Made by a program: the position numbers and the translations under genes. Below the pieces are notes generated by a model that did no database searches, was not told the origin of the DNA, and saw only the letters and a list, made by a program, of their open reading frames with translations. From positions 92,994 to 156,993 of IMG/VR virus record IMGVR_UViG_3300030438_000078: a DNA stretch of 64,000 bases, one strand, 5' to 3'. This document shows, piece by piece, positions 12,723-62,794 of this stretch (within the stretch, counting starts at the first letter, position 1; every line of letters starts with the position of its first letter). The stretch comes from a virus.

Positions 12723-13077
12723 TCTCTACTCCTTTAATTAATGATTCAATATAATCAGCTCTAGCTTGTATAGCATCATATAAATCCTTGATACTTTCTG
12801 CATTTTCTATATTTTCATAAGTTTCGTCATATATACAAGGGCATACCATCGTGTAGCTTTCTCCTTGTCCGTGTATACAATCTGGACAAAATCCATTAAT
12901 AGGTTTACATAAATGACAAGTTCTAACACTTCCAAAGCCTGTTATTTCATGTATAACACCTTCAAAATATGCTCCATCTTCTGTATATAATTTGTTATAT
13001 ACCTCTTTTAACTGCTCAATAGTAATACTTTTATACAATTCTACTAATTCTTTAGCAGATTCTAAATTTTTTACCAT
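12712..13077 (-). CDS. hypothetical Cys-rich protein (possible zinc-binding)
   Basis: 121 aa with CHLCK..CPDC..CPC cysteine cluster. Confidence 0.4.
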   Translation of the reverse strand: MVKNLESAKELVELYKSITIEQLKEVYNKLYTEDGAYFEGVIHEITGFGSVRTCHLCKPINGFCPDCIHGQGESYTMVCPCIYDETYENIENAESIKDLYDAIQARADYIESLIKGVENGN

Positions 13078-14060
13078 ACTTTTTCTACAATTAATTTGTC
13101 GGATTTAATGATTTTATCCCAATCCTTGTAGGAATTAGAAATAATAACTTTATCAAACTTATCAAGAACTTTTCTTAATCCTTGTTCATTAACAGCATGA
13201 CAAACAATCAAAGTAAATACTCCGTCTGGATATTTCTCTTTAAGTACTTCTAATTCTCCCAAGAAAGTTCCACCACCATCACACAAATCATCAACAAATA
13301 CAAAATTCTTAGAAGTTAAATTCGCATAATCAATTTCAAAAGATTCAATCTTACCTGTTTTTAAATTACGTTTCTTATTAAAAGTAATCATGCCTCTTTT
13401 TTTATAGAATCCATTATTTAAAAATCCTTGATATCTTTCTCTAGAACCTTCATCTGGATATATTATAGTAGAGTCTTCTGGGAAGTCGCAGTCCAATGTA
13501 CATAAGAAATAATTTCCATAGGACCCCATTAAATCTACTGTTTTATCTGAATGAGGTTCAAGAACTTCCACATCATAGCAACTAAAATTCTTAAGTATAT
13601 TACTTACAATTTTTAGAGAAAAAGGTCTATTAAAATCCATTACTCTATCCATTCTCATAGACATTAAATAAGTAATATATAAGAACCATTTTACTTCATG
13701 TCTGCTAAGAATATCATTAACTTGCATTAGAATAAATAATTCATCTGCATTAGTTACTCTACAAATAACTTTTATTTCTTGTTTTCTATCAATTTCTGAA
13801 TCAATAGATATTTGTTTTTCTCCATCAGGAAAAGAGAAAATAGTGTAAGAGGTTCCTTCTCTAGTTAATTGTGCTGCATTAACTTCTAGAAAGTCTAACT
13901 TATTTGCCTCACATAATTGCTTTATAGTAAAACTTTTTCCTGATCCACTTTCTCCAGTTAATATAAAGTGTGGTCTAAGTCTGCACTGACTGTTTTTAAA
14001 TATTTGAAATATTCTATTTATTTCTTTTATTAAAGTTTCTTGACCTATTATTTTATTCAT
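13071..14060 (-). CDS. two-domain protein: N-terminal P-loop NTPase + C-terminal phosphoribosyltransferase-like domain
   Basis: Walker A 'LTGESGSGKSF' at N-terminus; C-terminal 'FVFVDDLCDGGGTF' matches the type-I PRTase PRPP-binding motif (hydrophobic run, DD, xxxGGT). Confidence 0.45.
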   Translation of the reverse strand: MNKIIGQETLIKEINRIFQIFKNSQCRLRPHFILTGESGSGKSFTIKQLCEANKLDFLEVNAAQLTREGTSYTIFSFPDGEKQISIDSEIDRKQEIKVICRVTNADELFILMQVNDILSRHEVKWFLYITYLMSMRMDRVMDFNRPFSLKIVSNILKNFSCYDVEVLEPHSDKTVDLMGSYGNYFLCTLDCDFPEDSTIIYPDEGSRERYQGFLNNGFYKKRGMITFNKKRNLKTGKIESFEIDYANLTSKNFVFVDDLCDGGGTFLGELEVLKEKYPDGVFTLIVCHAVNEQGLRKVLDKFDKVIISNSYKDWDKIIKSDKLIVEKVW

Positions 14061-18860: not shown

Positions 18861-20858
18861 TTAAAATTTAATTTTAAAAGGTTTATTATTAACTTTAATA
18901 ATTACTTCATTAGATTGAGTAAGAGAGAATCCCAAACCACTAAGCTGGTCATCACTATACTCAGTTTTAGCTTTAGAAGCTAATGCTTCAAATACTCTTC
19001 TATGATTTCTTTCAAGGTCACTTCTCAGATATTCGTTAAAGAAACCTCTTACAGGGTCAGGATTTTTACATCCTTCAATCATAAAGAATAAGTGTTTATT
19101 ACCCACTTCATTTCCTTCCCAATGATTAGGTGAGAACATAATAGATGATACTTTCTGGAACTTCATAGTATCAACATTCCATTCCTTAGTAGACTTAACT
19201 GAAGTAGAGCCTTCTGGAATAATAGGCTGAATAGATATAGTCTTATCTTTAGCTACTATAATATTAGCAACTTTTACAACTGTATCAACCATTTTATTAT
19301 AGTTAAACTTATGAAGTTCTCCATTAATTTCAATCTCTACTTCAAAACCTACATCGACACTTTCTCTTTTATTAAAGTTATTAATATAAACAGTGTAAGT
19401 TCCCACATTCAATCTATTAGGATCTGTCCACACAACATTTTCAACAGCATCTCTAACTGGACGATTAACATTCATATCAACATCAAGAGTTCCTCCAGAA
19501 ATACCATGTCTGTTACCAAAATAAATTTCTCCTCCTGCTGGTTGAACTACATGTAAATCCAAATCATCCAAATTAAACCAGTGAAGAGAAGCACGCATAA
19601 ATCCATCGACATTACCACCTGCAGCTTTAACTTTCTCTTTAAATGAGTCAGCAAGAGAACCATTATAAACCCATGCAAAGTTATTATTCCACTTAAATAA
19701 GTGTCCTGCATCTGGGTTTTCTGGAGCGGTTAAAGTTACTAAATTAGGAATATGTTTGTTTTCAACAAGAATAGAAACATCAGTAGAGCCTGGAAGAATA
19801 TCTTTCAAGAACTTATCTACAGATACTTCTTCAGCTTTAGTAAATGTCTTAGGATTAACAGTAGCTTCAGATATTAGAGATTCAAACATTCCTCCTTTCA
19901 TCTTAGCTTTAGTATCTCTGTTTACAAACAATACGTCATTAACAGAAATATCTTCTACTTTAGCATGACGACGAGGAAGTGCATCAGTAAGTCCTAATTC
20001 TTCTACAGTCTTCTGAGCAGCTTCAATCTGTTTCTTAGTAATTAATGCTGTAGGTCTTTTATAGTTAGAAGGAGCCATAATACTTTCATAAGCTCTTACA
20101 GCTCTTTCAAGATCCATTCCTTCACTTAGGTTAATAAGCAAAGTTCCCATAGCTGTATTTCTAATTTTAGCTACTTGAGATTTATAGTTTAACCAACAGT
20201 AATTAGAAAGGTTAGAAGTTGGAGCAGTTTTCTTAATTCTCAAAAATTCTTGTAGTCCTTTAAGGAATTCAGCACCACGATAGAGAGAGTTATCTTCAAT
20301 CAAATCAATAACTGTTTCTACTGATTCGTCAGTAAGTTCTTTAATAGAACGCTCAAGAACTTCTTTTCTTGCTCTTACATCACCTCTATAACCATCTACA
20401 GTATCAAATTCAAGATTTCTTTTGTTAAATTTAAATCTTTCTGGAATGGTTACATAAAGATGATGCCAAGTTCTTGTAGTACCATCAGTAAGTAATTGAA
20501 CATTATGGTCACAACCAAGAAATTCATTCACATCTTGAATAAAGATATTACATATAGCAGCTTGTTTAACTAACTTAGCCATTTCCTGAGCAGCTTTCTC
20601 GAATCCAGGAGAATGAACATCATCCCAGAAAGTTTTAGTTTCATAAGTCAATGGGTCAATAGCTACTACCTTTCCATAATGTCTAATGAAGGACTTACAA
20701 GCATTACAATTATGTTGCTGCCTTTCATCTGGGTCATCAAATGAGAGAAGATAAGCCGTCCAAAGCAAATCTTTATCTACATTAACTACAAAAAGGTTAT
20801 CACTAATCATATTGTTAAACGCAACTTCTACATCTTTCTTAAATCTGATAAATTCCAT
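18861..20858 (-). CDS. large hypothetical protein (665 aa)
   Basis: Long uninterrupted ORF on the coding strand; no motif I can name. Confidence 0.5.
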   Translation of the reverse strand: MEFIRFKKDVEVAFNNMISDNLFVVNVDKDLLWTAYLLSFDDPDERQQHNCNACKSFIRHYGKVVAIDPLTYETKTFWDDVHSPGFEKAAQEMAKLVKQAAICNIFIQDVNEFLGCDHNVQLLTDGTTRTWHHLYVTIPERFKFNKRNLEFDTVDGYRGDVRARKEVLERSIKELTDESVETVIDLIEDNSLYRGAEFLKGLQEFLRIKKTAPTSNLSNYCWLNYKSQVAKIRNTAMGTLLINLSEGMDLERAVRAYESIMAPSNYKRPTALITKKQIEAAQKTVEELGLTDALPRRHAKVEDISVNDVLFVNRDTKAKMKGGMFESLISEATVNPKTFTKAEEVSVDKFLKDILPGSTDVSILVENKHIPNLVTLTAPENPDAGHLFKWNNNFAWVYNGSLADSFKEKVKAAGGNVDGFMRASLHWFNLDDLDLHVVQPAGGEIYFGNRHGISGGTLDVDMNVNRPVRDAVENVVWTDPNRLNVGTYTVYINNFNKRESVDVGFEVEIEINGELHKFNYNKMVDTVVKVANIIVAKDKTISIQPIIPEGSTSVKSTKEWNVDTMKFQKVSSIMFSPNHWEGNEVGNKHLFFMIEGCKNPDPVRGFFNEYLRSDLERNHRRVFEALASKAKTEYSDDQLSGLGFSLTQSNEVIIKVNNKPFKIKF

Positions 20859-30008: not shown

Positions 30009-30051
30009 AAGCTTGCTCCTATTTCTAAGAACAAGCTATAATACAACAAAG

Positions 30052-30136
30052 TAGAGCAGGTGAGACTCGAACTCACACACCTTTCGGTGCTAGATCCTAA
30101 ATCTAGCGTGTTTCAACCAAGTTTCGCCACTACTCC
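30052..30136 (-). tRNA. tRNA-Leu (anticodon UAG), type II
   Basis: Acceptor GGAGTAG/CTGCTCT (two G.U), anticodon arm CTAGA-TTTAGGA-TCTAG, variable hairpin CACC-GAAA-GGTG, T-arm GTGAG-TTCGAGT-CTCAC; 85 nt. Confidence 0.7.
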
Positions 30137-30245
30137 AACATTAATCATATATAGGCTGATTAATCCAATAATCAGCTTCAATATCTTCAAATATTTCCTT
30201 TACTTCTTCATCTGTTAATTCTTCCATAATTATAAGTTTTTATCG

Positions 30246-30319
30246 TGGACTAGGTGGGATTCGAACCCACAATCTTCAGTTTATGAGACTGCTGCTTCAA
30301 CCTCTTAAGCTACAAGTCC
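30246..30319 (-). tRNA. tRNA-Met (anticodon CAU)
   Basis: D-arm GCTT-AAGAGGTTG-AAGC, anticodon loop CTCATAA, T-arm GTGGG-TTCGAAT-CCCAC; 74 nt. Confidence 0.7.
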
Positions 30320-30326
30320 TAATAAG

Positions 30327-30398
30327 TTGCTCTAGGAGAGTACGATTCTCCAATTTCAGAACCAAAACCTGACGTGTTGCCGATTACACCATAGAGCA
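30327..30398 (-). tRNA. tRNA-Gln (anticodon UUG)
   Basis: Acceptor TGCTCTA/TAGAGCA, D-arm GTGT-AATCGGCA-ACAC, anticodon arm TCAGG-TTTTGGT-TCTGA, T-arm GGAGA-ATCGTAC-TCTCC; 72 nt. Confidence 0.7.
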
Positions 30399-30836: not shown

Positions 30837-30910
30837 AATGGTAATAATTGATTTACTTTTCTATATTTTTAGATACTAAACATATAATCTAAATATTTAA
30901 AGTTAAATGC

Positions 30911-30950
30911 GGAGGTAGCTGGATTCGAACCAGCTAAATACCATACCTCC
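30911..30950 (-). ncRNA. tRNA-like minihelix (acceptor stem + T-arm only, 40 nt)
   Basis: GGAGGTA-TGGTATTTA-GCTGG-TTCGAAT-CCAGC-TACCTCC: perfect 7-bp acceptor stem and canonical T-arm joined by a 9-nt linker; no D or anticodon arm. Confidence 0.4.
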
Positions 30951-31007
30951 TATCATAGGGACTTGTTATACTTTACTATTAGATTAGTTAGTCCTTATGC
31001 ACAAGAA

Positions 31008-32978
31008 TTACTTCACTTCTTCAAAAGTATCAGTAGTTTCTTCTTTAGTTTCAAGCTTCTTTCCTTTTACAATATTCTGAACAGTTTCCTTGAACGGAAT
31101 AGATTCAAGAGTTTTCAACATCGGGCTTACACTTTCAGCAATACTTGTCATAAACTGAGCAGCAGTATTCTCGTTACCATATACAGTAACATTACCCAGA
31201 TTGATATGTTCATACATCTTAGCAGAAGCTGCGGCAATTTCCTTATACTGGTCAACAGTCTTATACTGTACAACCATGTCTGGTGTCATACCATTAGCAA
31301 TCATTTCCTTAACTGCCAATGCAGGAGCCATTTCAATAGCCTGGACTTTATCAGCTTCAGCCATCAAAGAAGCTCTTTTACCTTCAGCTTCAGCAAGAAG
31401 TTTCTTACGAGTACCTTCAGCTTCTGCTTCCATCTGCAATTTAGTAGCATCTGCTTTAGCTTCTGCTTCTTTCAGAATCCTAGCTGCTTCAGCTTCTGCT
31501 TCAAGAATTGCTTTCTGTTTTACTGCTTCTGCTTCAATAGTAACTTTCTCTTTTTCCTTCTGAGCAGGAACAATAGTCTCAGCATGCAATTTAGCTTCCA
31601 CAGCAAGAGCCGTAGCTTCATTTACTTCAAGCTGTTTTTCTTGTTTTGTTTTCTCAATCTGCATCTGAGCTTCTACTTTAGAAGTACCTGCAACTTTCTC
31701 AGCTTCTGCTGCTGCTTGTGCAGCTTCTCCTTTAGCTTTAGATACCTCAATAGTAGCCATATGTTCTGCTACACCAGCTGATTTACCAGCTTCTGCTGCT
31801 TTCTGTCTCTTTTCAGATTCATACTGTGCAACAGCCGCTTCCTGCTCATTAATTGCTTTCTGAGTTTCAGCCACCTGTTTCTGTTTAGCTTGTGCTACAC
31901 GAGTTTCCTTTTCAGCCATAGCTTCTGCTTTTCTAGCATCTGCCTCAGCTTGAGAACGTGCAATATTAGCTACTGCTTCAGCTTGAGATTTAGCTTGTTT
32001 AGAATCAGCTTCAGATTTAGCTTGTGCGATATTAGCTACTTTTTCAGATTCTGCTTGAGCTTTAGCTGTTTCTGCCTGAGTTTTAGATTTAGCTACATTA
32101 GCTTCCTGTTCAGCTTGCTGAGCAGCAATACCTGAAAGTTTATTCTTTTCTGCTTCTGCTAACTTGATTTCCTTTTCCTGGTTAATTTCTGCAACTTTTA
32201 CTTCTTTCTCTTGTTTAGTCTGAGCAACCTGAGTTTCTCTTTCCTTTTCAGCATTAGTTACAGCAATTTGACGTTCCTTTTCAGTTTCTGCAATCTGAAT
32301 ATCTCCTTTCTTCTTTTCTTCTGCAATATCTGCTTGTGCCTGAGCTTGAGCTTTAGTTGCAGCTTTCTGACCAAGATTCTTGATATAGTTTGCATCATCT
32401 GAGATATCAGCATTATTAATATTAATAATACTAAATCCCACTTTATTCAATTCAGTTTCAATATTCTCTTTTGCTTTACCTAAGAACTTAATTCTATCAG
32501 CATTAATTTCTTCAATAGTCATTGTTGCCATCAAAGATCTTACTTCACCAATAAGAATATCCTGAATCTGACCAGCAATTTCTTTAGTATTAGCAGTTAA
32601 GAATCTACTTGCAGCATTTTGCATCAAAGTTTGAGATGTTCCAATACCAGTAGTTAATGTTACAGGAATAGTAACTTTAATCATCTGGCTAGATACACCG
32701 CTTACAGAAGTCTGAATCTGAATAGGTTTCAAACTCATCTTTCTCCAATCCTGAATAATAGGCATTACGAAAGTACCCCCACCATGAATAATTTTAGAAG
32801 GCAAGATTACTTCTTCCTTCTTTCCAGTTGTCGGATTAGTTACTGTCTTTTTACCAGCTTTACCAAACACAACCAAAATTTCATCAGAAGCACATTTGCG
32901 ATAACGAGACAAAAGTCCAATGAAAGTGATAACTACCAATACTACAATAATTCCTGCAATAATAAAAGTTGATGTCAT
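31008..32978 (-). CDS. flotillin-like SPFH/band-7 membrane protein
   Basis: N-terminal TM, SPFH-like core, then ~350 aa of E/A/K/Q-rich coiled coil ('AQAQAQADIAEEKKK...AEAEAEAARILKEAEAK'), the architecture of YqiK/FloT flotillins; 656 aa. Confidence 0.65.
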   Translation of the reverse strand: MTSTFIIAGIIVVLVVITFIGLLSRYRKCASDEILVVFGKAGKKTVTNPTTGKKEEVILPSKIIHGGGTFVMPIIQDWRKMSLKPIQIQTSVSGVSSQMIKVTIPVTLTTGIGTSQTLMQNAASRFLTANTKEIAGQIQDILIGEVRSLMATMTIEEINADRIKFLGKAKENIETELNKVGFSIININNADISDDANYIKNLGQKAATKAQAQAQADIAEEKKKGDIQIAETEKERQIAVTNAEKERETQVAQTKQEKEVKVAEINQEKEIKLAEAEKNKLSGIAAQQAEQEANVAKSKTQAETAKAQAESEKVANIAQAKSEADSKQAKSQAEAVANIARSQAEADARKAEAMAEKETRVAQAKQKQVAETQKAINEQEAAVAQYESEKRQKAAEAGKSAGVAEHMATIEVSKAKGEAAQAAAEAEKVAGTSKVEAQMQIEKTKQEKQLEVNEATALAVEAKLHAETIVPAQKEKEKVTIEAEAVKQKAILEAEAEAARILKEAEAKADATKLQMEAEAEGTRKKLLAEAEGKRASLMAEADKVQAIEMAPALAVKEMIANGMTPDMVVQYKTVDQYKEIAAASAKMYEHINLGNVTVYGNENTAAQFMTSIAESVSPMLKTLESIPFKETVQNIVKGKKLETKEETTDTFEEVK

Positions 32979-32990
32979 AAATTTAATTAA

Positions 32991-33542
32991 TTAGTTAAAA
33001 TAATATTTACCTTGTTCAAATCTTGTAATTGTTACTTGTTCTCCAGATTTATATTCTTTAGCAACAGCTTCTGGATAAGCTTCTATACTCTGTAACATAC
33101 CATTAATTTCTACAATAATAGTACATTGAGTTTCACCAGGAATATTCATAGTCCCGACTCTGCCTATTAAAGTCGCCCCTTCTTCTGGAATAACTAAGTG
33201 TTGAAGTTTTAAACAAAGTTTATATAAATAGTAAAGTATAACCACAAATAATATTCCAATAACCAATGCTATTAGAAAATCATACCACTGAACTTCAGAT
33301 GTCATATTTTTAATGCTTAACCATCCAAAAGAACCCATTAGAAAATGAATTAATCCTTTGAATGATACCACATCACTAACAGCCATATCAAGTTCTCCGT
33401 CCAAATCTACATCAAGATCAGTATCCCCACCAAACCAAGATAAAATAAATTGAACAATAAAAATACCATACGCAATGGCAGCTACTAAATAATAAAGATT
33501 TACCATATTATTTCTTATTACAATATTTACAATCTGGGTCAT
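32991..33542 (-). CDS. NfeD-like membrane protein (flotillin partner)
   Basis: Several TM helices followed by a C-terminal soluble beta-rich domain; immediately upstream of the flotillin gene as in yqiJ-yqiK/nfeD-floT operons. Confidence 0.55.
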   Translation of the reverse strand: MTQIVNIVIRNNMVNLYYLVAAIAYGIFIVQFILSWFGGDTDLDVDLDGELDMAVSDVVSFKGLIHFLMGSFGWLSIKNMTSEVQWYDFLIALVIGILFVVILYYLYKLCLKLQHLVIPEEGATLIGRVGTMNIPGETQCTIIVEINGMLQSIEAYPEAVAKEYKSGEQVTITRFEQGKYYFN

Positions 33543-33729
33543 GTACTACTCCACCTGTGGCAGATTTAGAAACAGAAGTTCTAAATTTAATATACTGATG
33601 ATTTTGATATTCAAAATGAGTAACAAAGTCAAAAGGAATTACTCCTTCTTGACTAACTCCAACTGAAGTTTTTTGTCCTTCACATCCACACAATAACACT
33701 ACTCCTAATAAAAGAATAATCTTTCTCAT
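33508..33729 (-). CDS. putative lipoprotein
   Basis: 'MRKIILLLGVVLLCGCEG' signal plus lipobox; 73 aa. Confidence 0.4.
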   Translation of the reverse strand: MRKIILLLGVVLLCGCEGQKTSVGVSQEGVIPFDFVTHFEYQNHQYIKFRTSVSKSATGGVVHDPDCKYCNKK

Positions 33730-33731
33730 AC

Positions 33732-34445
33732 TTAGTCAAACATATATTCAATTTCTTCTCCTAAGATTTTAATAGCTTTCTCTGCTAATTCTTTAGTTTT
33801 GAAATAAGTAATTGCACACTGTGTAGAAAATACAGAAGAAATTCTTATTTTAGCATTTTCTTTATAAATACAATATTTTCGTTCACGTGGATCACTCCAA
33901 TTTGGTTTCCAGCCATCATTCAGATACTCAGCAATAATAGCAAGATTATGCATAATTGCCCACTTTGGAGTTTCTTTTGTTGGAACAACCATAAGACTAG
34001 GAGTATTCTTTACTACTTTATCAAATATTTCTTCTAAAGTAGGCAATTCTTCTAATTCATCTTTAGTAAAAGCTTGAAGAGCAATTTCTTTCAATGTACC
34101 ATCACTCTTATACCATTCTCTAGCTTTTTCTAAGCTTACTTTAACATTTCTTTCTTCCATTTTATATTCTTTATTTAATAACCTAGCAATAGCTGATAAA
34201 AATTCTTCTTTAGTTTTAACTAGATAACGATATCCTTTTTCAATTTCAGTATCATCAGAATAACTAGTATTTCCTATTTCAAATCTAGACGAACTTGGAC
34301 CACCATAATTAGAAACTAAATAAGGCAGTTGTTTCCAATAATAAGAAATACTAAAGTAAGAAACTCCCCAAATATCAAGCTGTTCCTTAATTTCTTCCCA
34401 CAGCTTTTCATTACATTTAATTACTGGATATTTTCTCATTTTCAA
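33732..34445 (-). CDS. hypothetical protein, paralog family member 2
   Basis: Shares N-terminal 'EKAREWYKSDGTLKEIALQAFTKDELE' with 34820..35305 and the C-terminal 'YFKTKELAEKAIKILGEE' box with 27116..27619. Confidence 0.45.
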   Translation of the reverse strand: MKMRKYPVIKCNEKLWEEIKEQLDIWGVSYFSISYYWKQLPYLVSNYGGPSSSRFEIGNTSYSDDTEIEKGYRYLVKTKEEFLSAIARLLNKEYKMEERNVKVSLEKAREWYKSDGTLKEIALQAFTKDELEELPTLEEIFDKVVKNTPSLMVVPTKETPKWAIMHNLAIIAEYLNDGWKPNWSDPRERKYCIYKENAKIRISSVFSTQCAITYFKTKELAEKAIKILGEEIEYMFD

Positions 34446-34819: not shown

Positions 34820-35305
34820 TTAGAACAAATATTTAATATCTTCTCCAATTAATTCGATTGCTTTCTCCAAATCTTCTCTCGTGTTGAAATACACAACTCC
34901 AGGATATCTTGCTCCACTATGAGTTCCAACCTGAAGTTCATTTCCGTACATTCCTTTAATGAAATATTGGGTAGTAGGAACAAGACTCTTTGAATTGAAA
35001 TACTGTGCTATTGTAGACAGCTTATGAATAACAGACCATTTTCTGTCTTCACAATCTGGAACAACGTAATACTTAGGAGTAGTAAGTCGTACTTCAGAGT
35101 AAATCTGATTAAAATTAACATACTCCAATTCTTTCTTAGAATAAGTTTTCAATGCCAATTCTTTCAAAGTAGCGTTACCTGATTTATACCACTCTTTTGC
35201 TTCATTTAAGCTGATTGCAATGTTTCTTTTTTCTTCCATGTTTAAATATTTTTTATAAAATTTGACAAATTCTTCTGCTGGGATAATATTATAGTTATAT
35301 TTCAT
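34820..35305 (-). CDS. hypothetical protein, paralog family member 3
   Basis: 'LNEAKEWYKSGNATLKELALKTYSKKELE' and C-terminal 'YFNTREDLEKAIELIGED'. Confidence 0.45.
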   Translation of the reverse strand: MKYNYNIIPAEEFVKFYKKYLNMEEKRNIAISLNEAKEWYKSGNATLKELALKTYSKKELEYVNFNQIYSEVRLTTPKYYVVPDCEDRKWSVIHKLSTIAQYFNSKSLVPTTQYFIKGMYGNELQVGTHSGARYPGVVYFNTREDLEKAIELIGEDIKYLF

Positions 35306-41231: not shown

Positions 41232-41486
41232 TCAGAGGATTTTTAAAAGTATCCCCACCGCTGTGGGGATTTTACAAATGTCCACCAAGAACAGACCTTC
41301 CTGTGCCACTATACTTTGAATTGTTTCACAACAACTACATAGTCTCTGGGCATACCCATTATGGTCTTGTAACAATTTAAATATAACATGACAACTTTTT
41401 TGTTTCACAACAATTTTATAAGATGGGTTCTCTATTCTGGAATCGAACCAGATCTTCCCACACTTGTGGTAGTGCCCATACACCAT
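41232..41486 (-). CDS. hypothetical Cys-containing protein
   Basis: 84-aa ORF. Confidence 0.35.
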   Translation of the reverse strand: MVYGHYHKCGKIWFDSRIENPSYKIVVKQKSCHVIFKLLQDHNGYAQRLCSCCETIQSIVAQEGLFLVDICKIPTAVGILLKIL

Positions 41487-41493
41487 TAGAGAA
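41428..41493 (-). ncRNA. truncated tRNA-like element without an anticodon loop
   Basis: Acceptor TTCTCTA/TAGAGAA, T-arm TCTGG-TTCGATT-CCAGA, short D-hairpin, and a CCAC-AAGT-GTGG tetraloop hairpin where the anticodon arm should be; ~66 nt. Confidence 0.3.
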
Positions 41494-43807: not shown

Positions 43808-43881
43808 TGGGGTATGGTCGTAATTGGTTAACGGGTCTGACTCTAAATCAGAAATTCTGGGTTCGAGTCCCAGTACCCCGA
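43808..43881 (+). tRNA. amber suppressor tRNA (anticodon CUA, reads UAG)
   Basis: Acceptor TGGGGTA/TACCCCG, D-loop TAATTGGTTAA, anticodon arm TCTGA-CTCTAAA-TCAGA with CTA at 43843-43845, variable AATT, T-arm CTGGG-TTCGAGT-CCCAG; 74 nt. Confidence 0.8.
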
Positions 43882-43900
43882 CAATTAAAACATTAATAAT

Positions 43901-44910: not shown

Positions 44911-46464
44911 TTACAGAATATTCTTGCCAAAATAGACAGGAACAGTTTTATCATCCATTAGTAATCTTTTCTTTTGTTTTAAAGGGGTATATAACTTTTT
45001 AGTAATTCCACTAGGGGAGTACTCAAACTAATTATATTCAGAATTCAATAATGCATCTTTAAGCTCCTATGAAGTTACAGTTGTCTGATTTCCTTGATAA
45101 ATATCTTCATAATCGGGTCTTGTATCATAAAATCCCTTCTTATTTAAAGGTCTACTACTTACACCCATAGTATAGGGATTCATTCCAATTATTTCTGCTT
45201 GCTATTCTGGAAGTAACTATACCTTACCTCTAAATCCACTAGAAGTGTTACCAAAATTTAAATGACTTCTTCCCATTTGTGTAACATCTATTTCACCAGG
45301 AAAACCTCTATAATCAGTAGCCTTTCTAACCCCAAAAGTCTTTGTAGGAAATTCATAAAGTACTTTTATTCCGATAGGTTCTGACGTACCTAATCCAGAA
45401 AATTCTTCCCAAGGAGTAGTGTGGGATATAAATAGTTTCTCACCCTCTATATTAGTACTAGGTAATTTACTTGATCTTGCCATTCTATAATAATTATCCC
45501 CATTTCTAGTAGATAAAAAATTAGACCATTCAGAATTTCTAAAAGCCCGTGTAGCTTTATCTATATTCTTAGGAGAATTATCTAAATTTCTACTTAATAT
45601 TTTAGCTCTAGCCCATTTATTACCAGCTTTAGCTAATCCATATTCAGCTACTCTACCTAATCCTTTAAATACAGGGTTTAAAGCAACTCCTTCTACATAT
45701 AACTAACCTATAGGGTCTGTACCGCTCATACTTATATTAGTAGTAGAGGTTTGTTCTTTACCATTAGCATCTTTCCATCTTACTACTTCAGAATTTGGTT
45801 GCTAACTTCTAGCATTAGCAACCTGTAATCTATTATATGCTTGAGGGTCTTCTTTCTTCATCTATTCTACTACTTGAGAATATTGAGGACCTTTATATTC
45901 TAATTTACCCCAAGCTGTTTGTTTCTTAGGAATTAATATCCCACCCTTTTTAAACTCTTTATTTTTATTTCCTTGCTCTATATACTACTTTAAGAAATTT
46001 CTCTGATTCTCATTTATCGGTATATAAACAGTATTCATTCCTTTATGTAATCTTTTTGTAAGTTCTGGTCGTAGGTCTAATTTATATTTATGTTCTGCTG
46101 GGTAATAAATAGAATCTCCTTTTATCATTGGTATCCCATTTAATTCCTCTAATACAAAATCTTGAACATCTCCAGGAGTAGTAAACAAAAAAGAATTTAG
46201 TTTTTTATTAAAGGTCTTTTCTAAAGCGCATCTAGTTGCATCACTACAGTTATTAGTAACTAGATTATAATCTTTATGTTTTCCGCCTTTATCTACTGTG
46301 TAGGGTCTATATCTATCATCCTTTGACCCAGTTATAGTTAAACTACTATGTCCAGTAAGTGGATATCTACTAACAAAAGGATAATAAGTATTTAGAACTG
46401 CATATTTAGAAGATTCATCTAATAACTCGTTTCCTTCCTAATATTTTGGTATTAATTTACTCAT
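44911..46464 (-). CDS. TAG-recoded protein (517 codons) with papain-like thiol-peptidase-type 'NNC' motif (PPPDE/LRAT-like)
   Basis: One frame from ATG 46464 to TAA 44911 contains about 10 in-frame TAGs and no TAA/TGA; it fuses ORF-track pieces 45985..46188 and 45217..45483; 'HKDYNLVTNNCSDATRCALEKTF' resembles the Cys box of PPPDE/NlpC-P60-like peptidases. Confidence 0.5.
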
Positions 46465-46669
46465 ATGTATTTATCTTTATATATTTAAGCCAACTAAATG
46501 GTTTTCTATTATCTAAGTATTCTAAGTTATCGTCATTGTTATGTGCTTCTTCTTCTAAGGAAATTTCATGATAACAATTCTTTTGTTTATCTTTAATTCT
46601 GAATAATCTAATTAATAAATACTCTAATCCATACCATATATAAAATCCAATAAATAAAGTTTCTATCAT
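46457..46669 (-). CDS. small membrane protein
   Basis: 70 aa; N-terminal TM 'LFIGFYIWYGLEYLLIRLF'; ends TAA; overlaps next gene start by 8 nt. Confidence 0.4.
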   Translation of the reverse strand: MIETLFIGFYIWYGLEYLLIRLFRIKDKQKNCYHEISLEEEAHNNDDNLEYLDNRKPFSWLKYIKINTYE

Positions 46670-46794
46670 CTATTTAGTATGAATCTTTTCATGATTTATA
46701 TCTATATTTGATAAACTATCTTTAGTAAATAAGATTCCAAATAGATTTATTGCTTTGTATCCTTTAAATGGAATAAATTTATTTTTAATTATTA

Positions 46795-46986
46795 TCATAT
46801 TATATAATACCAATCAGTACGTTCTCTTACTCCTTTATCTTTTAACTATTGAGAATTTAGATGATAATCACCGTTTCTAAAATTCAACTCTTTATCTACA
46901 TAATTCCAGTAAAAATATCCATGCCATCCTGGAAGAAGCAAAGTCTTTCCAGTTACAGCATATAAAGTAGCTTGATTATAATTCAT
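46795..46986 (-). CDS. small aromatic-rich protein with one in-frame TAG
   Basis: ATG at 46986 overlaps the TGA of the holin-like gene (ATGA); TAG at 46846-46848; ends TGA 46795. Confidence 0.35.
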
Positions 46987-47258
46987 AGTATAATTATTAA
47001 TATACCTAATATTATTCCAATTAAATCTGCTATTATATCTTTCCAATCCCATCCAGTACCATTTGATCTGAATTTATCATATAATTCTTTTGATATAGAA
47101 GCAACTATTGCTAATGCTACTCCTACTTTCAAATTAAAAACTCCTACTATTAATACAATAGCAAAATTAATTATCACATGTTTTAATTTATCATTTCCTT
47201 TTATAAGAGAAATAATATTATTTATCCAATTTTTTATTGTTTCCATCCTTATTACCAA
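46983..47258 (-). CDS. holin-like membrane protein
   Basis: 91 aa with two or three TM helices ('FAIVLIVGVFNLKVGVALAIVASI', 'IIADLIGIILGILIIIL') and charged loop; located in a lysis-like cassette. Confidence 0.45.
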   Translation of the reverse strand: MVIRMETIKNWINNIISLIKGNDKLKHVIINFAIVLIVGVFNLKVGVALAIVASISKELYDKFRSNGTGWDWKDIIADLIGIILGILIIIL

Positions 47259-47469
47259 ATTTCCAAATTCCTGTTACACTATCTATACCTAATAGTCCCA
47301 TGCAACACCATAGAACTGTATCTATCATTAATGGAGCTTGTATAACTTCAACTGTACAATATACCAATACTAAAAGACATATTATCCAACCAGTTAATCC
47401 GCAAACTCTCTTAGAAGATACTCCTGATTGAGAAATTACTACTTCCTTCAAAAATTGTATAAATCTCAT
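47218..47469 (-). CDS. membrane protein (holin/spanin-like)
   Basis: 83 aa, two TM helices, basic C-terminus; ATG overlaps TGA of upstream gene (ATGA). Confidence 0.4.
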   Translation of the reverse strand: MRFIQFLKEVVISQSGVSSKRVCGLTGWIICLLVLVYCTVEVIQAPLMIDTVLWCCMGLLGIDSVTGIWKFGNKDGNNKKLDK

Positions 47470-48485
47470 CTCTTAAAATATTGATTTATAACATCAGAGT
47501 AATTATCCACCTACTAAAAAGCATCATTTAATCCTCCGTTAATATATATATTATACATATCCTATATGGATTTAGAACTATTTAATCTACTTTTAAATTT
47601 ATTAGGCATTTTGTAGTAAGCATATAACATTCTATCTTCTGAACCTGGATTATTCTTAAAGAAAGCATGAACTGAATTTCCATACTTTTCTATTAATAGT
47701 TTTTTAGCATCGTTCAATTTCATATTAATAATCTCAGCTGCATCATTCAAAGATAAATTATCTTTTCCCCATACTTTCATTTTATTATCAAACGGTTTTT
47801 TATAAGTTAATCCAGTAATATTTAATCTTTGTTTGACGTCGTCTAAATTATCCAATCCAAAGTTTCCTAGTTTTTTATAAGATGTATTTCCAGGATTTTT
47901 AGTGGGATTTCGGGCAATTACAACACTATCTGGATCGACTGTTAATTTAGAATTAAGCATATTAGTAGCATAGCCTTCGTTTAACAGTACATTTAATAAT
48001 CCCCTCTTATGGGCAACATTAGAGAGTACTCCATTTAACTATTTTCTGTTTTTATCTAAAAATGAATATTTCCAATTTTTATCTATACCATTTTTATCTG
48101 TACCCCATTTAGTATTTACAATTACTTTATAATTAGGAGAGGTAACTTCTCCACCATCTTCATGTTTTTTAATTAAACCATAAGTTCCTTTCTTTAATCT
48201 TTTAATTGTAATCCATCCATTATCTAATATTGACCTATGTCCATCTGGCTTATGAATCTTCGAACCTTCCTCATGTTTCCATTTAGCAGCATTTCTAGCA
48301 AAGTTAGCCCTCTTCTTTTGTAATGGAGTAGTCTTAGGATTTTTTAATACAGCTCTTGCATGCTCCTATACACTTCTTCCTGCCTTTTTAGCAGAAGCTG
48401 TAAACTTTCCTCTGTTCTTCTTTTTAATATGAATACCAGAACCTTTCTTATATATCTAGCATCCAATAAATTCTAAATTGTTCAT
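47466..48485 (-). CDS. TAG-recoded basic protein (340 codons), candidate lysis/virion protein
   Basis: ATG 48485 to TGA 47466 with in-frame TAGs at 48456, 48366, 48039, 47562, 47514 and 47511; extends ORF-track piece 47562..47960 in both directions; very K/R-rich N-terminal third. Confidence 0.45.
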
Positions 48486-51168: not shown

Positions 51169-52461
51169 ATGGCATTAAATTTAGACCCAGAATTTGTACA
51201 TTATGTTTAGGGTATTTATGGAAACGCTGATTTAGATGGTAAAGTAATTAAATAGTTATATTAGACATGGAAGAGTAATCCTTAGTTTATTATAAATGCT
51301 TATAATTAGAAAAATCAAGTTCAGCAAAATAAACCTTAGCTAGCTTCAATGGCTAATAATAATATTAGATAGATTAATAAGCCAGAAGTAGCACAGGATG
51401 ATTTAAGTGGAATTACTAATTTTGGAAACGCATTTAAAATAGCTAGTTAGAGAAATTTAAGTTAGTTTAAATGGAAGGGAACTAAAGCTAATCCTAGTGG
51501 ATTATTTGCAGTTGAATTTGCAACAAAAAAATAGTCTACATCTAAGCCTACTAAGCCTACTAAACCTTCTCCTACTTCAAATAATTCTAACTAGTCAAGT
51601 CCTTCTTCTACTCAAACATGGTCAAGTTTACTTGAAAAAGCTCCGACTCTTGATTTAATAGAATCAGTAAAAGGAAAATCATTTTGGGATGGAACCTTTT
51701 TTCCAGTAGATAAATCTTTAGTTAAAAAGGCTCCTTCTCCTGTAACTAATAGTTCCTCTACTTTGAAACAAGATGTTCCAAGTAGTCCATTGCCAAGAAA
51801 TAGAGAAGCCGAATCATAGGCAAGACAATCAGCTTTTGAAAGAATGACATACTAGAATTGGAGAAGTAATAGACCCTCTGAAAATAGTTATTTTAGAGCA
51901 GGTTATAATTCTATAACTCCATCTTTTTATTAGTAGGGAGGTACTATGTAGCAACAATAGTCTTCTCAAGAATAGGAATTACAAAAAGCTTTCTTAGCAT
52001 ATTTAATTTAGGATGCAGCATAGCAAGGTATTCAATTACAATCAGAACAAGATTTACAAGCATATGCTTAGCAACTTGGAGAAGAAGGTATAAAAGCTAA
52101 GTATCAAGAATTTATGCAGAAAATGCAAGGAGGAACAATGGCTAAACTTGGGACAAAGTTAGAATATATTAAAAAACTAAAAGGAGTATGTCCAGAAGGC
52201 TATGAAATGTCCTATTACAAGGTAGGAGGAAGAATCTGCAAAACTTGTTAGAAAATGCATAAAATGGAAGCTGCATAGAAAGGGAAGAAACTAAATGCAG
52301 TTCAATAGTTTAAGAAAGATATGAAAACTAAAGATGAAGCATCTAGAGATTCTATAGCTATCAATAAATGGCAGGATTAGGATACAATGGCTAAGAAAGG
52401 AAATAAAGGAAACTTTAAAAAAGGAACATGGGTTCCAGATAGAAAGAAATATAAAAAATGA
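51169..52461 (+). CDS. Gln(TAG)-rich hypothetical protein (431 codons)
   Basis: Continuous protein-like frame with more than 25 in-frame TAGs, ends TGA; Ser/Pro/Thr-rich linker and C-terminal Cys motif 'CPEGYEMSYYKVGGRICKTC'. Confidence 0.5.
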
Positions 52462-52494
52462 GATTTAATTATCTTATATAAATGGGTATGATTT

Positions 52495-53055
52495 ATGAAT
52501 GTGTTTAGTTTTAATTCATTAAATAAAAGTTTAGAAATTAATGAACCTGAAATATTATTGGTAAGAGAGTTTAAAGCTTTAGTGGATAGGGATTTTACTT
52601 CTATGAAAGAAAAAGTTACTAGAGAACTCACTTATATCTTTCTAGCAATAGATTGGAAAAGTCCCTATAACCAATATTCTGAATAGGAAAGACATGAAGA
52701 AGCTTTAAATGATTCTGGATTAACAGAATCTGAATTTAATGATCCTATATTTAGAGAAGCATGTAGAAAATATAGGGCTTTATAGGATTCTAATAAATCA
52801 ATTAAGTTATTAGAAGCTGCTAAAAGAGCAGCTGATTAGTTTATAGATTATTTCGATACCATAGTAGACTTAAATGAAAGGGATAATAATGGAAAGCCTG
52901 TTTTCTAGGCAGAAAAAGTAATGAAAGAAATGGCTTAGTTACATAAGGTACATGAAGAATTAATTACCCTAGAAAATGAAGTTAAGAAGGAGCTTACTGA
53001 ACAGTCTACTATTAGAGGTGGTGGAGAAGACGGTTTTGATCCAGGAGATATTTAA
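52495..53055 (+). CDS. hypothetical protein upstream of terminase (candidate small terminase subunit)
   Basis: 187 codons, 5 in-frame TAGs, ends TAA three nt before the terL ATG. Confidence 0.45.
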
Positions 53056-53057
53056 TT

Positions 53058-55208
53058 ATGGGAAGAAAGAAAAAAATACTACCTGAAGAATTATAGATTA
53101 TAGTAGATGAAGTAAGAAATAAATAGGAATAGGAAGATGCTCAAGAAGCTAGAGAACTAGTATAGAAGTTAAGACAGGAAAGGTCTAATGATAAAACATA
53201 TTGGGATGTAAAAAAAGAAGAAACAATAGAAGTATTTGACCCAACATTATCTTATGAGTTAACTGGATATAGACCTATAGATGAAACTCATGGATTAGAC
53301 TTTAATCCAGAATGGTTCACAGAAACTAGGGAGGTTTATAAGAAAACTGGAAAATATTGTCCGTATCTAAAAGATAGTAAGAGATATAATGAATTTTGGA
53401 AAGAGCAATATAGAAGATGTAAATACGGAATGACAGTTAATGGTTACACTATTACTGGAGATAATTACTTCTTTTTGAATTTCTATTAGTTACCGGCTAT
53501 TGATACTAACTAGGCTTCTGGTTCTGGAACTAGAGATGATTTTCCAATATTTTTCGCATCTCATTATATGTTCTTCCATTATTTACAAATGGCAAGAGTA
53601 CTTCATAAGCATGCAGCTTTGATGAAAGCTCGCTCGATAGGTTTTAGTGAAATAAATGCTTCATTATCAGCAAGAATGTATTCTGTGATTAGAAAAAGTA
53701 GAGTGATGATTACTTGTTATAATGATACCTTCTTAAAGGGCACATTTAATAAGTTTGATCATGCTTTAACTTTTTTAAATACATGCACTAATGGAGGATT
53801 CTTTAAAAGAAGAATTACAGATTAGGATCTAAAAAAGAAATCTGGAACTTAGATAAAAATAGATGGACAGTTTGAAGATACTGGATTTCAATCAGAAGTA
53901 CTAGGAATTAATGGAGCTAAACCATCTAATATTCGTGGTGACCGTGTTGATTTATTAATATTTGATGAAGCAGGTTCTTGGCCAGGTTTAACTACTGCAG
54001 TTGTACAAGGACAAGAATTATGTGAAGTATAGGGTGTTCCTAGAGGTACTATGTTATTTGGTGGAACTGGGGGCGATATGGGGGCACCTTTGGAAGGTCT
54101 TAAAAAGATATATTATAATCCTAGGTCATTTAAAATACTTCCATTTAGACATAATTGGACACAAGATGGTACTACTATAGAAAGCGGATTCTTTATACCT
54201 TACTTTTTACAATCTCTTAATCCAGAATTTATGGATAATAGAGGAGTTTGTAAAATTGGAGAATATAAAAAATTCTTACAAGAAGAACGCGACAATCTAT
54301 TAGCTGTTCCAGAAGAATATTTAAAGAAATGTGCTGAACGTTGCTGGAATGCAGAAGAAGCATTTAATCTTGAAGGCGTTAATAAATTTAATAAAATAAA
54401 CATAGCTAATTAGTTAGCTACTATAAGACTTCATAAACAAGGTCCAAGACCTGAAGTAGGAGTAATAGATTACTATTATAAAAATAGCCAACATACTCCA
54501 GAAAATATAGCAGGTTTTAAATGGATGCCTAATCCTAATGGTAAAGTAAAAATATTAGAACACCCAGTATGGTCAGATTTATATAAAGAATAGATAGAGA
54601 AATTAAGAAAGAAAGCCGAAGAAAATGATGAAGAATTTACTGTTCCTGTATATAAAGAAATGAAAGACTTGTATGTTGCAGGAATAGACGGTATTGATAT
54701 TGGTGCAAATTAGACTTCTAAAGAAACTAGAGATCCTTCAGATTTCTGCATTACTATTAAGAAGAGAGCTTTTGGACTTAATGATCCTCAATATGTAGCA
54801 ATATATAAAGATAGACCTGGAAATATTAGAGAAGCTTATAAAATTGCTATGTGCTTAGCTAGATATTTTAACTGTAAAATAAATATAGAAGCAACTCGTA
54901 TGAGTATGGTTACTTGGGCTAGAGAAAATAAATGTTTACAATACTTTATGAAACGTCCAAGAGCTACACTAACAGATATTAAAAATGGTACTACTAAGTA
55001 GTACGGAACTCCTGCAACTAAAACTATTATTGAACAGCATACAGATTTAACAGCTGACTTTGTTGAAGATTACTGCCATACTATATGGTTTGAAGAAATG
55101 CTTGATTAGCTTACTGGTTATAATGATGAAAATAAAGGTAAGTTCGATATTATAGCATCAATGGGTATCTTAGTTATGCCCCTATATATAGTAATATATA
55201 TAAGATAA
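53058..55208 (+). CDS. terL: terminase large subunit
   Basis: 717 codons with about 14 in-frame TAGs; ATPase Walker B 'RVDLLIFDEAGSWP' followed by a nuclease-domain region 'LYVAGIDGIDIGAN'; size and order (immediately before the portal-like gene) fit TerL. Confidence 0.7.
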
Positions 55209-55495
55209 TTCCGCAAAATCGGTGAAGACTAAGATGATTAAATTTATTGAAGAACATTAAATAGAAAATTTAATAAATTTAATCATTATGTTAATACCGA
55301 GGTAACTTAATTAATCGTTGAGTACCGTAACGCGTAGGAGATGAGCGTTATAGAGAGCAATAATTCTCCCAAGAGTGTGGAACATCCTATAGTGGATGAA
55401 AATGTACGCTGACCCGTCTGATGATTAAATCAGAATATAGTAAGGAGGAAACTCCCGGAATTATTGAATAAAAAATCAATAAGATAACAAAAGTG

Positions 55496-55714
55496 ATGAC
55501 AGAATTAGCAGATTAGGAATTGTCTGGAAGACAACCTTCTTTAGTTGTTAAAGATGTTGAAGAGTTTCAAGATTTTGGATATTATAGAGATGAAAGGGGT
55601 TATATAAGACATGGTGTAATACCTAAGAGAGAACCTCAACTAATTAATATAAATATAGAAAAATATGATGACCCATACAGAATTGAAACAAGCGATCCTA
55701 GATTATATACGTGA
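55496..55714 (+). CDS. hypothetical protein
   Basis: 73 codons, TAG at codon 7, ends TGA. Confidence 0.35.
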
Positions 55715-55967
55715 ATTATATGAAATGGAATATATAGGAGGTTTAGAAATAACTGACCTAGATCCAGTAGGTTATAAAATTTCTTTTAATTTTGATAAAT
55801 CTGAAATGCCTTTAGTTATTATAGCAGATTTACCAGATGAAGAATTTTTACCTTTTATAAAAGAAGAATTAAGAAGTAGAAAACTTCATAGAGTTAAATA
55901 TTTTGGAGCTACTAAACTTCCTCCAGAACCTATAACAGTTTGTAATGAAAGAAAAAGAACTTATTGA
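55665..55967 (+). CDS. hypothetical protein
   Basis: 100-aa ORF overlapping both neighbours. Confidence 0.35.
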   Translation: MMTHTELKQAILDYIRELYEMEYIGGLEITDLDPVGYKISFNFDKSEMPLVIIADLPDEEFLPFIKEELRSRKLHRVKYFGATKLPPEPITVCNERKRTY

Positions 55968-58128: not shown

Positions 58129-58865
58129 TGGCAGTAATAGGAACAAAATTATATAATAAAGAATATCAACAAATATATCCAGAATCAGATGCTTCAGTAA
58201 TTATTTGTAATGGTTCTGGAAATAAATCTTATGTAGAAGAGGATATTAAAAAGATATATAAATAGATATCTGATCTTACTGGGGCCACTGAAACTATAAA
58301 TAATATTATAGTTAAAGTACATTATTTACCTTCTAATATTTCTAATGAATCTGATATTAAATTATCTGAGAAATAGTGGTCAGATACATTTGAATTACCT
58401 AGTGAGGAGAATCCCTATGTTTGGAAAAGAACTTTATTTACATATGAAGGAGCAGAAGATGGATAGGGAACTACTATATATGAAATAGTTGCTACAGACA
58501 CTTCAACTATTATTTAGACAATCTATACTAGAACAGAAGGGATTACACCAGTAATAGAATATAAACAAAAAGTAGATGAAAAAGGAAATCCTTTATATAT
58601 AGACTCAGATGGAAGAGAAACTACTGAAGTAACTTCTACTAAAGCTTATGATTATAATTATTACTGGGATGGTTCAAAGGCTAATGGTATAAATAATCTT
58701 CCTCCTACTCCACCAGAATAGACTTATACTTGGACAGATTACCCTCAAGATATTAGTCTATCTTTTACATCTGTATTTATGTCTAGAAGAATTAGATAGG
58801 GAGGAAAGTGGGGACCCTTATCTACACCAGCACAATATGGTCAGTGGCCAGTAGGTACTAATTAA
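58128..58865 (+). CDS. hypothetical structural protein
   Basis: 246 codons, 8 TAGs, ATG overlaps portal TAA (TAATG). Confidence 0.45.
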
Positions 58866-58876
58866 ATTATATAATT

Positions 58877-59605: not shown

Positions 59606-59760
59606 AAGAAAAGCAATAATTACTTATAAAAACCTTCTATCTAAAGTAAAGAAAGGTTATAGACCAGATTATAAGGATTTACTAAATTTAATTTGTTTTA
59701 TAAGTCTCCCAGAAAAAATAGATAATTATGATTTTATAAAACAACAACTATTAAATTAGA

Positions 59761-62793: not shown

Positions 62794-62794
62794 A

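Follow-up and report, generated by a model that had tools for sequence, protein, structure and literature searches.

A flotillin-family gene and an NfeD-like partner, very probably of Bacteroidales origin, in a putative TAG-recoded crAss-like gut phage

The flotillin and NfeD-like genes

The DNA studied was a window of 64,000 nucleotides (nt), corresponding to positions 92,994–156,993 of the virus record IMGVR_UViG_3300030438_000078, and feature coordinates given here are positions in this window unless another locus is named. The subject of this work is a pair of open reading frames (ORFs) on its minus strand: one of 656 amino acids (aa) at 31008–32978 and, upstream of it and separated by a gap of 12 nt, one of 183 aa at 32991–33542. 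Both genes end with a TAA stop codon. The large gene (31008..32978) is predicted to encode a flotillin-family (SPFH) protein and the small one an NfeD-like membrane protein, and it is very likely that both of these identities, as well as an origin of the two genes in the host, are correct.

The start of the small gene was revised. All 156 database homologues of its product begin at residue 13 of the ORF, and the stop codon of the upstream ORF (33508–33729) is located 1 nt before the ATG of this methionine (M13). For these reasons, the small gene most likely comprises positions 32991..33506 (−), encoding 171 aa from M13, rather than 183 aa. The remaining in-frame upstream extension of 12 codons (33507..33542, −), which overlaps the end of ORF 33508–33729 and is covered by no homologue, is probably not translated. 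The preliminary description of this locus had given a multi-transmembrane protein of 183 aa with a soluble C-terminal domain; three transmembrane (TM) helices and a C-terminal beta domain were indeed predicted, and it is only the length that should be changed. The 656-aa protein was as it had been described, with an N-terminal TM segment, an SPFH core and a long helix rich in E, A, K and Q.

Domains of the flotillin-family protein

The Pfam Band_7/SPFH profile (PF01145) matched residues 46–222 of the large protein with 72 bits (cut-off 23.6; E = 8.3e-20). The lack of an SPFH match at about residues 40–250 had been named beforehand as the result that would refute the assignment, and the refutation therefore fails. 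FloT was the sole NCBIfam match (E = 1.7e-45). Since the protein scored 156 bits with the FloT equivalog model NF058507, the cut-off of which is 700 bits, it should be regarded as a member of the flotillin family and not as a FloT orthologue; its Bacteroides homologues scored 141–155 bits with the same model. A search of all PDB sequences gave flotillin-1 and flotillin-2 as the only significant matches (E about 2e-20), and no stomatin, prohibitin or HflK/C chain was matched by the large protein. No HflK/C match was found in NCBIfam either, and identity with HflK/C was rejected, as neither of these searches matched it and the fold-level matches were weak only. YqiK of Escherichia coli was 24% identical to the large protein (E = 1e-13).

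The AlphaFold2 (AF2) monomer model of the flotillin had a predicted local distance difference test score (pLDDT) of 56.6, too poor for geometry, and only its secondary structure and the rank of its fold matches were used. The model contains a TM helix (residues 2–27), an alpha/beta region (43–193) and a near-continuous helix at 196–466 (196–226 and 235–466). Beyond this helix, which by analogy with human flotillin is called here the wall, come a break (IVPAQKE), a second helix (474–561) and C-terminal helices at 566–586, 604–625 and 629–637. In a Foldseek comparison of the model with the PDB, in which matches were weak, the top five were flotillin structures, and prohibitin, stomatin and HflK/C came next. 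The order of parts is that of flotillins: membrane attachment, SPFH domain, a long Ala/Glu-rich helix that is not of heptad type, a second helix and a C-terminal domain. Thus the name flotillin (SPFH) that had been proposed was borne out alike by Band_7, FloT, the flotillin-1/2 structures and Foldseek.

On the minus strand of the window, the N-terminal membrane anchor (aa 2–27) is encoded at 32898..32975; residues 4–23 are hydrophobic, AF2 predicted a helix and the motif RYRK follows. By the positive-inside rule, these positive residues after the TM segment suggest that the bulk of the flotillin is cytoplasmic. The SPFH/Band 7 domain (aa 46–222; 32313..32843) includes a phage-specific insertion of 14 aa at residues 47–60. 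The wall helix CC1 (aa ~196–466; 31581..32393), predicted by AF2 with low confidence, has an 11-residue period, and the second helix CC2 (aa 474–561; 31296..31559, AF2) follows the Pro-containing break IVPAQKE. The C-terminal domain and tail (aa 562–656; 31011..31295) were drawn from AF2 helices of low confidence.

The NfeD-like partner

The AF2 model of the small protein, built from 37 homologues, reached a pLDDT of 79.6 and showed three TM helices and a five-stranded C-terminal beta domain. This domain (aa 115–171; 32994..33164, −) is predicted to have the oligonucleotide/oligosaccharide-binding (OB) fold of the NfeD type. The setting is also that of an NfeD protein, with N-terminal TM segments and an adjacent, co-oriented SPFH gene. 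Between TM1 and TM2 there is an acidic D-x-D-x-D loop (aa 25–48, including DVDLDG; 33363..33434, −) which ends in the motif SFKG (S48, F49, K50, G51), invariant across the small-protein family. This loop holds on average 7.8 D/E and 0 K/R in the family. The pattern DxDxDxD was found in 6 of 7 phage and 55 of 71 bacterial members, and DxDxDG in 32 of 37 close homologues.

The Pfam NfeD profile (PF01957) had been suggested as a check of the small protein, and here the expected match was not obtained for the protein of the window. Neither phage nor Bacteroides small proteins matched PF01957 at E<=0.01; among the close homologues 2 of 39 gave a match, the best with E = 0.14. An exhaustive profile search yielded 1,064 cluster representatives of the small-protein family, and PF01957 was the most frequent Pfam family among 37 of its more distant full-length members, 5 of which matched it (best E = 4.4e-6). 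The profile of the close homologues gave only spurious repeat or TM matches when searched against PDB sequences. Fold and transitive sequence evidence therefore support the NfeD call, and we concluded that the small protein is probably a short NfeD-family protein of a subfamily missed by current Pfam models. It would define an NfeD-like subfamily across the Bacteroidales.

Other memberships were considered. YqiJ/DUF1449 was rejected, as neither PF21001 nor PF07290 matched the small protein and the E. coli YqiJ control matched both; in addition, hhalign gave a probability of 0.2% for the family profile against E. coli YqiJ. The long NfeD (STOPP) form was rejected too, since the 171 aa hold TM helices and an OB domain only, without a ClpP-type serine-protease domain. 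The arrangement had been likened to nfeD-floT and yqiJ-yqiK operons at once. The first comparison is upheld by the fold and the transitive links, and the second does not hold strictly. It could be argued that OB folds are common and that, with no significant Pfam NfeD or YqiJ match and a negative hhalign comparison with YqiJ, the small protein is not a functional NfeD partner but an unrelated small membrane protein with an OB-like domain. In view of the fold and the transitive links just described, this is highly improbable.

A role in proteolysis was weighed on the same data. HflK/C is oriented to the periplasm, which differs from the cytoplasmic orientation predicted for the flotillin; it was not matched significantly at sequence level, where the PDB gave flotillin-1/2 only; and the protease domain is missing from the small protein, a short NfeD. 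These three points make it very unlikely that the pair regulates an FtsH-like membrane protease as HflK/HflC does, tuning the stability of phage or host regulators, even though HflK/C–FtsH structures are among the weaker Foldseek matches, SPFH proteins classically pair with membrane proteases and the long forms of NfeD bear a protease domain (PMC13086221).

Conservation of the pair in phages

Seven of 50,697 records of deposited phage genomes matched the flotillin. In metagenomes, 1,176 scored flotillin homologues were obtained, mostly on contigs of 140–190 kb, and the index of the assembly collection listed one flotillin cluster in 343 blocks; the phage clade is abundant in human-gut metagenomes. 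IMG/VR contained 52 viral contigs with the flotillin, many of them of 185–193 kb, and the NfeD-like gene was directly upstream of it in 51 of these 52. The two genes were also adjacent in all other phage loci examined, including a 361-kb contig. The statement that such pairs are uncommon in phages consequently applies to deposited genomes, but not to this clade, where the pair is the rule. Compared with a relative (L009), the flotillin had a ratio of nonsynonymous to synonymous substitution rates (dN/dS) of about 0.12 and the small protein one of about 0.32, values which indicate that the pair is under purifying selection.

Three pair-bearing phage contigs of 140–186 kb (L009, L010 and L011) were deposited in bins of metagenome-assembled genomes (MAGs) labelled Gastranaerophilales, Clostridium and Bacteroides, a placement that is probably due to mis-binning. 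In the T5-like Vibrio phage KIT04 (L002, 3689–5359), a 473-aa Band_7 protein annotated as "flotillin family protein" follows an 82-aa ORF in which no family was detectable. Some phage flotillins come, then, without a recognisable NfeD partner.

Relation to a Bacteroidales chromosomal operon

One genome per prokaryotic species was scanned with the closer of the small-protein alignments, and 80 loci were recovered, including the phage contigs L009–L011. The other 77 belong almost all to Bacteroides, Phocaeicola, Parabacteroides and Prevotella/Xylanibacter, complete chromosomes of B. finegoldii and B. xylanisolvens among them, and their small proteins are 32–41% identical to that of the window. 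In 74 cases out of the 80, the small gene is followed after 10–138 nt by an ORF with a length of 400 aa or more. The ORFs tested downstream of bacterial small genes were FloT-like (E = 1e-41 to 1e-45), and the neighbours of the tested bacterial operons are housekeeping genes (truA, mnmG and the gene of a PduO-type adenosyltransferase). As the two genes are adjacent in the viral contigs, in the other phage loci and in these 74 genome loci, the pair is not a chance juxtaposition.

The flotillin of the window aligned over its full length with that of B. finegoldii (38% identity, E = 2e-125). The anchor and SPFH domain share 50% of their residues with the Bacteroides homologue, the helical and C-terminal parts 33–42% (40% at the C-terminal aa 546–640). 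Neighbour-joining trees of the two proteins were congruent. In both, the phage clade of the window was monophyletic, the protein of phage csAssE-Sib (OR575929) was nearer to the Bacteroidales and the bacterial genera grouped alike; E. coli YqiK and the flotillin of Vibrio phage KIT04 were outside. It follows from this congruence that the two genes moved and evolved together. All these data point to a derivation of the phage pair from a Bacteroidales nfeD-like/flotillin operon, and the trees are compatible both with one transfer and with several.

As regards the operon itself, some Bacteroidaceae carry two divergent pairs (L017 and L029 are both from MAG CAAFAI01). The types, which involve loci L012–L020, are one of 177/566 aa, as in Phocaeicola vulgatus by mnmG, and the common one of 165/544 aa. 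Since two divergent pairs are held by the same bacteria, the host operon has paralogous lineages.

Length of the wall helix

The hydrophobic periodicity of flotillin residues 215–420 peaked at 11.05 residues with a power of 2.43; shuffled sequences gave 0.48 ± 0.29 and none of 2000 reached 2.43. An 11-residue repeat suits the packing of helices in a right-handed coil, and that of the wall would fit a right-handed barrel such as that of human flotillin.

To measure the span of the wall, two conserved motifs were taken as anchors: Y[IL]x[NS]LG, where the SPFH domain ends, and [IV]xPA, at the break. In bacteria it was of 194 residues in 65 of 71 proteins and of 205 in the remaining 6, while it was of 227 in csAssE-Sib and of 271 in the clade of the window. 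Taking 194 as reference, these values mean increases of 11 (205), 33 (227) and 77 residues (271), the last being seven units of 11 residues (hendecads). On the phage side 168 homologues were examined, of which 118 had both anchors, and the span classes were 238 (n = 36), 249 (n = 15), 271 (n = 50), 227 (n = 2) and 260 (n = 1). Phage walls are thus 3 to 7 units of 11 longer than 194, and in 105 of the 118 measured spans the difference from 194 was a multiple of 11. The span of the second helix (IVPA to QYK) was 81 in 71 of 71 bacterial proteins and 102–103 in the clade of the window. This natural series of lengths (194 and 205 in hosts, 227–271 in phages) could serve to test how helix length sets the size of the cage.

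The lengths bear on the idea that the phage flotillin mimics that of the host, co-assembling with host flotillin and NfeD in order to disrupt or re-purpose them in a dominant-negative manner. In favour of this, the phage protein is a clear homologue: identity reaches 50% over the SPFH domain and anchor and 40–42% over the distal helix and C-terminal domain. However, the wall spans differ by 33–77 residues and the second helix by 21, and unequal subunits should not pack in a parallel helical barrel like that of human flotillin (PMC11260169). Moreover, the phage retains its own co-evolving NfeD, a partner that would be superfluous for a subunit acting simply as a poison. We regard such mimicry as quite unlikely.

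Genome context and neighbouring sequences

The G+C content of the window is uniform, about 30% throughout, and its genes are organised in strand blocks. ARAGORN gave 10 tRNA calls within it at 18291–43882 (including 2 tRNA-Met and 2 tRNA-Leu), one of them a suppressor tRNA with a CTA anticodon at 43808–43882 (+). Long ORFs at 44.9–63.7 kb are open solely when TAG is read as sense, with 6–30 in-frame TAGs each. The recoded regions lie at 44911–48485 (−) and 51169–63691 (+), and the CTA tRNA is just upstream. The large terminase (TerL; 53058–55208, +; PHROG match E = 1e-63) and the portal (55945–58128, +; PHROG match E = 3e-51) can be read with TAG as sense only, and at least six further proteins also need it. 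The minus-strand block at 1–43 kb, which contains the primase and helicases (PHROGs) as well as the flotillin pair, does not require recoding. TerL is 44–46% identical to that of unannotated human-faecal phage contigs and 27–28% identical, over 86–90% of its length, to that of many crAss-like phages. From these features the window can be assigned to a TAG-recoded gut phage, probably a crAss-like one, and the pair had rightly been called phage-encoded, terminase and portal being present and readable once TAG is recoded. When the 20 kb surrounding the pair were compared with deposited phages by Megablast, the matches were all short and of tRNA size.

It could also be supposed that the pair belongs to bacterial DNA and reached a phage contig through mis-assembly or mis-binning. 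In favour of this are the close homologues in Bacteroidales chromosomes and the deposition of the related contigs L009–L011 in bacterial MAG bins. The pair, at 57–96% identity, is nevertheless found inside dozens of viral contigs of 140–193 kb from many samples, with phage genes on its flanks; the window has the terminase, portal, tRNAs and uniform base composition just described; and the phage copies are just 33–40% identical to the bacterial ones. The presence of the same pair in many viral contigs effectively refutes this explanation, and its probability is negligible.

On the opposite strand of the locus there are four open frames (272, 120, 81 and 63 aa; 30963..32402, +), F/S/C/L-rich and of low complexity. 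They had no match to any Pfam family and are wholly antisense to the E/A/K/Q-rich part of the flotillin gene, which has more than 1000 homologues. They arise from codon composition, the complement of E/A/K/Q codons being poor in stops, and are not genes, in agreement with the preliminary description, which had called them spurious.

Several other sequences of the neighbourhood were recorded. The 73-aa product of the ORF at 33508–33729 (−) has a signal of the lipoprotein type (MRKIILLLGVVLLCGC) and matched phrog_9091 weakly (E = 6e-5). Only 1 nt separates the stop codon of this ORF from the start of the NfeD-like gene, so it may be translated together with the pair; it was not kept upstream of the pair in the relatives examined. 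The next ORFs, 33732–34445 (−; 237 aa) and 34820–35305 (−; 161 aa), share motifs such as SLEKAREWYKSDGTLKEIALQAF and SLNEAKEWYKSGNATLKELALKTY and have similar C-termini, and appear to be paralogues; they had a marginal PHROG match only. At 30910–30950 (−), 57 nt past the flotillin stop, there is a tRNA-like minihelix with an acceptor-like stem and a T-arm with GGTTCGAATCC. It scored 26.9 bits with the Rfam tRNA model (gathering score 29; E = 0.004) and was not called by ARAGORN; a tRNA remnant and a tRNA-like 3' element are both conceivable. A cluster of Gln, Met and Leu tRNAs (30051–30398) is just downstream of the flotillin pair.

Farther away, an irregular tRNA of no assigned identity, with a two-base "anticodon" (ag), was reported by ARAGORN at 41424–41493 (−), and short stretches at about 41.2 kb are 87–98% identical to the crAss-like phages cr272_1, cr273_1 and cr131_1. 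A 665-aa protein (18861–20858, −) matches phrog_1735, of unknown function, end to end (E = 5e-235) and is a highly conserved phage protein without annotation. Finally, the 329-aa ORF at 13071–14060 (−) matches the PHROG ribose-phosphate pyrophosphokinase (E = 3.5e-53), and it can therefore be considered a putative auxiliary nucleotide-metabolism gene.

Proposed role of the pair

Solved and studied relatives offer a model for what the pair may do. Human flotillin forms a 44-mer with a right-handed barrel wall of parallel helices, of 186 aa and without heptads, and the authors of this structure argued that the size of the cage is determined by the length of the helix (PMC11260169). In QmcA-YbbJ, 26 SPFH-NfeD heterodimers make up a cage that protrudes into the cytoplasm (PMC13086221). 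In Bacillus subtilis, FloT and NfeD2 are co-transcribed, co-localise in more than 96% and co-migrate (PMC4928834). By analogy, phage flotillin subunits would oligomerise at the host inner membrane, held there by their N-terminal helices, and form a domed cage on its cytoplasmic side. The TM helices of the NfeD protein would lie in the patch of membrane that the cage encloses, and the OB domain of the same protein would bind the flotillin. The bulk of the flotillin and the OB domain are predicted to be cytoplasmic, and the acidic loop would then be on the cytoplasmic side as well. That such a cage is assembled, with NfeD as partner, seems probable. The longer walls (by 33–77 residues) would give taller, phage-specific cages; at an estimated 0.15 nm per residue, 77 additional residues would amount to about 11 nm of fully extended helix. 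Since the wall is 3–7 hendecads longer than that of the host, mixing with host flotillin would be unlikely, and for this reason the phage would keep a cognate NfeD. The pair could be made before the late TAG-dependent genes, because it lies in the non-recoded block and its genes stop at TAA.

As for the purpose of the cage, FloA-NfeD stabilises unfolded membrane proteins under stress (PMC11222466). In analogy with this and with the stress roles of FloT, the cage might partition and stabilise a patch of host membrane and its proteins, so that the envelope would stay functional until lysis. Such a specific role is doubtful and we propose it tentatively. Identity, origin and assembly taken together with a general membrane-organising role are, on balance, what we favour.

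Several points weigh against this interpretation. The stabiliser role is its weakest step, and deletion of nfeD2 in B. subtilis had no discernible phenotype (PMC4928834). The NfeD call rests mainly on predicted structure: the small protein itself has no PF01957 match in the Pfam search, and the profile of its distant members, which placed YuaF at the top of the PDB with the whole soluble domain aligned, did so with an E value of only 0.028. The boundaries in the flotillin model are approximate owing to its pLDDT. With regard to the wall, 13 of the 118 phage spans, nearly all of them singletons, are not multiples of 11 over the bacterial length, and the measured sequences are related, so the counts of spans are not independent events. 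Lastly, a scan for sigma-70 promoters and terminators found sites no commoner than in shuffled sequences, Bacteroidales promoters being outside this model.

The same cage could also be thought of as a weapon, sequestering inner-membrane proteins of the host for superinfection exclusion or as a counter-defence against membrane-targeting abortive-infection effectors. The roles that the preliminary description had put forward, a scaffold for replication or assembly sites or an antagonist of host membrane defences, are likewise speculative. SPFH cages do enclose clients, such as FtsH in HflK/C (PMC13086221); the pair is placed in the presumably early, non-recoded block; and the wall length differs between phage lineages, which could reflect different cargo. 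On the other hand, no PHROGs match was found for either protein, nor any match to the PADLOC-DB defence models at E<=1, and no conserved neighbour gene points to a client. A function of this kind is unlikely.

Returning to the membrane-organising cage, a more far-reaching version of it can be imagined, in which the enlarged flotillin vault is a dedicated infection compartment, closed to host flotillin and with a wall whose height is tuned to the cargo by quanta of 11 residues that vary from one phage lineage to another. This cargo could be the replication or assembly complex of the phage, or else a caged DNA-entry channel or membrane-acting defence effector of the host. It is an improbable proposal; if true, the vault would be the first viral SPFH cage to act as a purpose-built, organelle-like structure in bacteria. 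In a more general sense, a conserved and selected scaffold operon of host origin in the presumably early block suggests that these phages actively reorganise the inner membrane of the host, which would be relevant to the way crAss-like phages infect, so far poorly understood.

Comparison with known systems

The nfeD-flotillin type of operon was already known, a GenBank record and JGI annotations name the large gene flotillin, and SPFH ORFs were listed in 2006 for the T4-like phages 44RR, Aeh1 and RB43 (PMC1524935). In the literature searched, nothing was found on flotillin in crAss-like phages, on csAssE-Sib or on the function of Bacteroides flotillin, nor any discussion of an NfeD-like partner, of a derivation from Bacteroidales, of the conservation of the pair or of a hendecad expansion of the wall. 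With respect to the preliminary description, the homology to a core operon of the host and the expansion of the wall in steps of 11 residues are new.

Among the solved structures, human flotillin-1/2 (PDB 9bq2 and 9l3g) is the best match both by sequence and by Foldseek. As in the protein of the window, the SPFH domain is followed by a charged, Ala/Glu-rich helix that is not of heptad type. However, the human proteins have no TM anchor and attach by lipidation, build a heterodimeric 44-mer and lack an NfeD partner (PMC11260169). QmcA-YbbJ of E. coli (PDB 8z5g) is more distant, as QmcA is stomatin-like, with a short wall, and has no significant sequence match to the flotillin of the window.

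In the yqiJ-yqiK operon of E. coli there is likewise a small multi-TM protein with a C-terminal OB domain before a flotillin-family protein of the inner membrane, but the small proteins are unlike each other, PF21001 and PF07290 being matched by YqiJ only. With respect to yuaF (nfeD2)-floT (yuaG) of B. subtilis, the flotillin of the window is well under the FloT cut-off, has a much longer helical region and lies in a phage context.

csAssE-Sib was the best of the deposited matches. Its annotated flotillin is 38.7% identical to that of the window, and the upstream 164-aa "transmembrane protein" is 33% identical to the small protein (E = 4e-26); this partner is not recognised as NfeD-like in the record. 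Neither a function nor a host origin of the annotated phage flotillins was discussed in the papers found.

The Bacteroidales operon, as found in B. finegoldii JCM 13345, P. vulgatus and Parabacteroides goldsteinii, has the same gene order and spacing, and its proteins are 38% (flotillin) and 33–40% (small protein) identical to those of the window. A protein of 164–177 aa with three TMs, an acidic loop and an OB domain is followed, most often after about 20–26 nt, by a flotillin, and the SFKG motif, the D-x-D loop and the restriction of NCBIfam matches to FloT are as in the phage pair. The differences are that the bacterial genes are placed among housekeeping genes, that the spans of the wall are 194/205 in the host against 271 in the phage and those of the second helix 81 against 102, that the 14-aa insertion in the SPFH region is exclusive to phages and that DxDxDG, common in the phage clade, is rare in bacteria.

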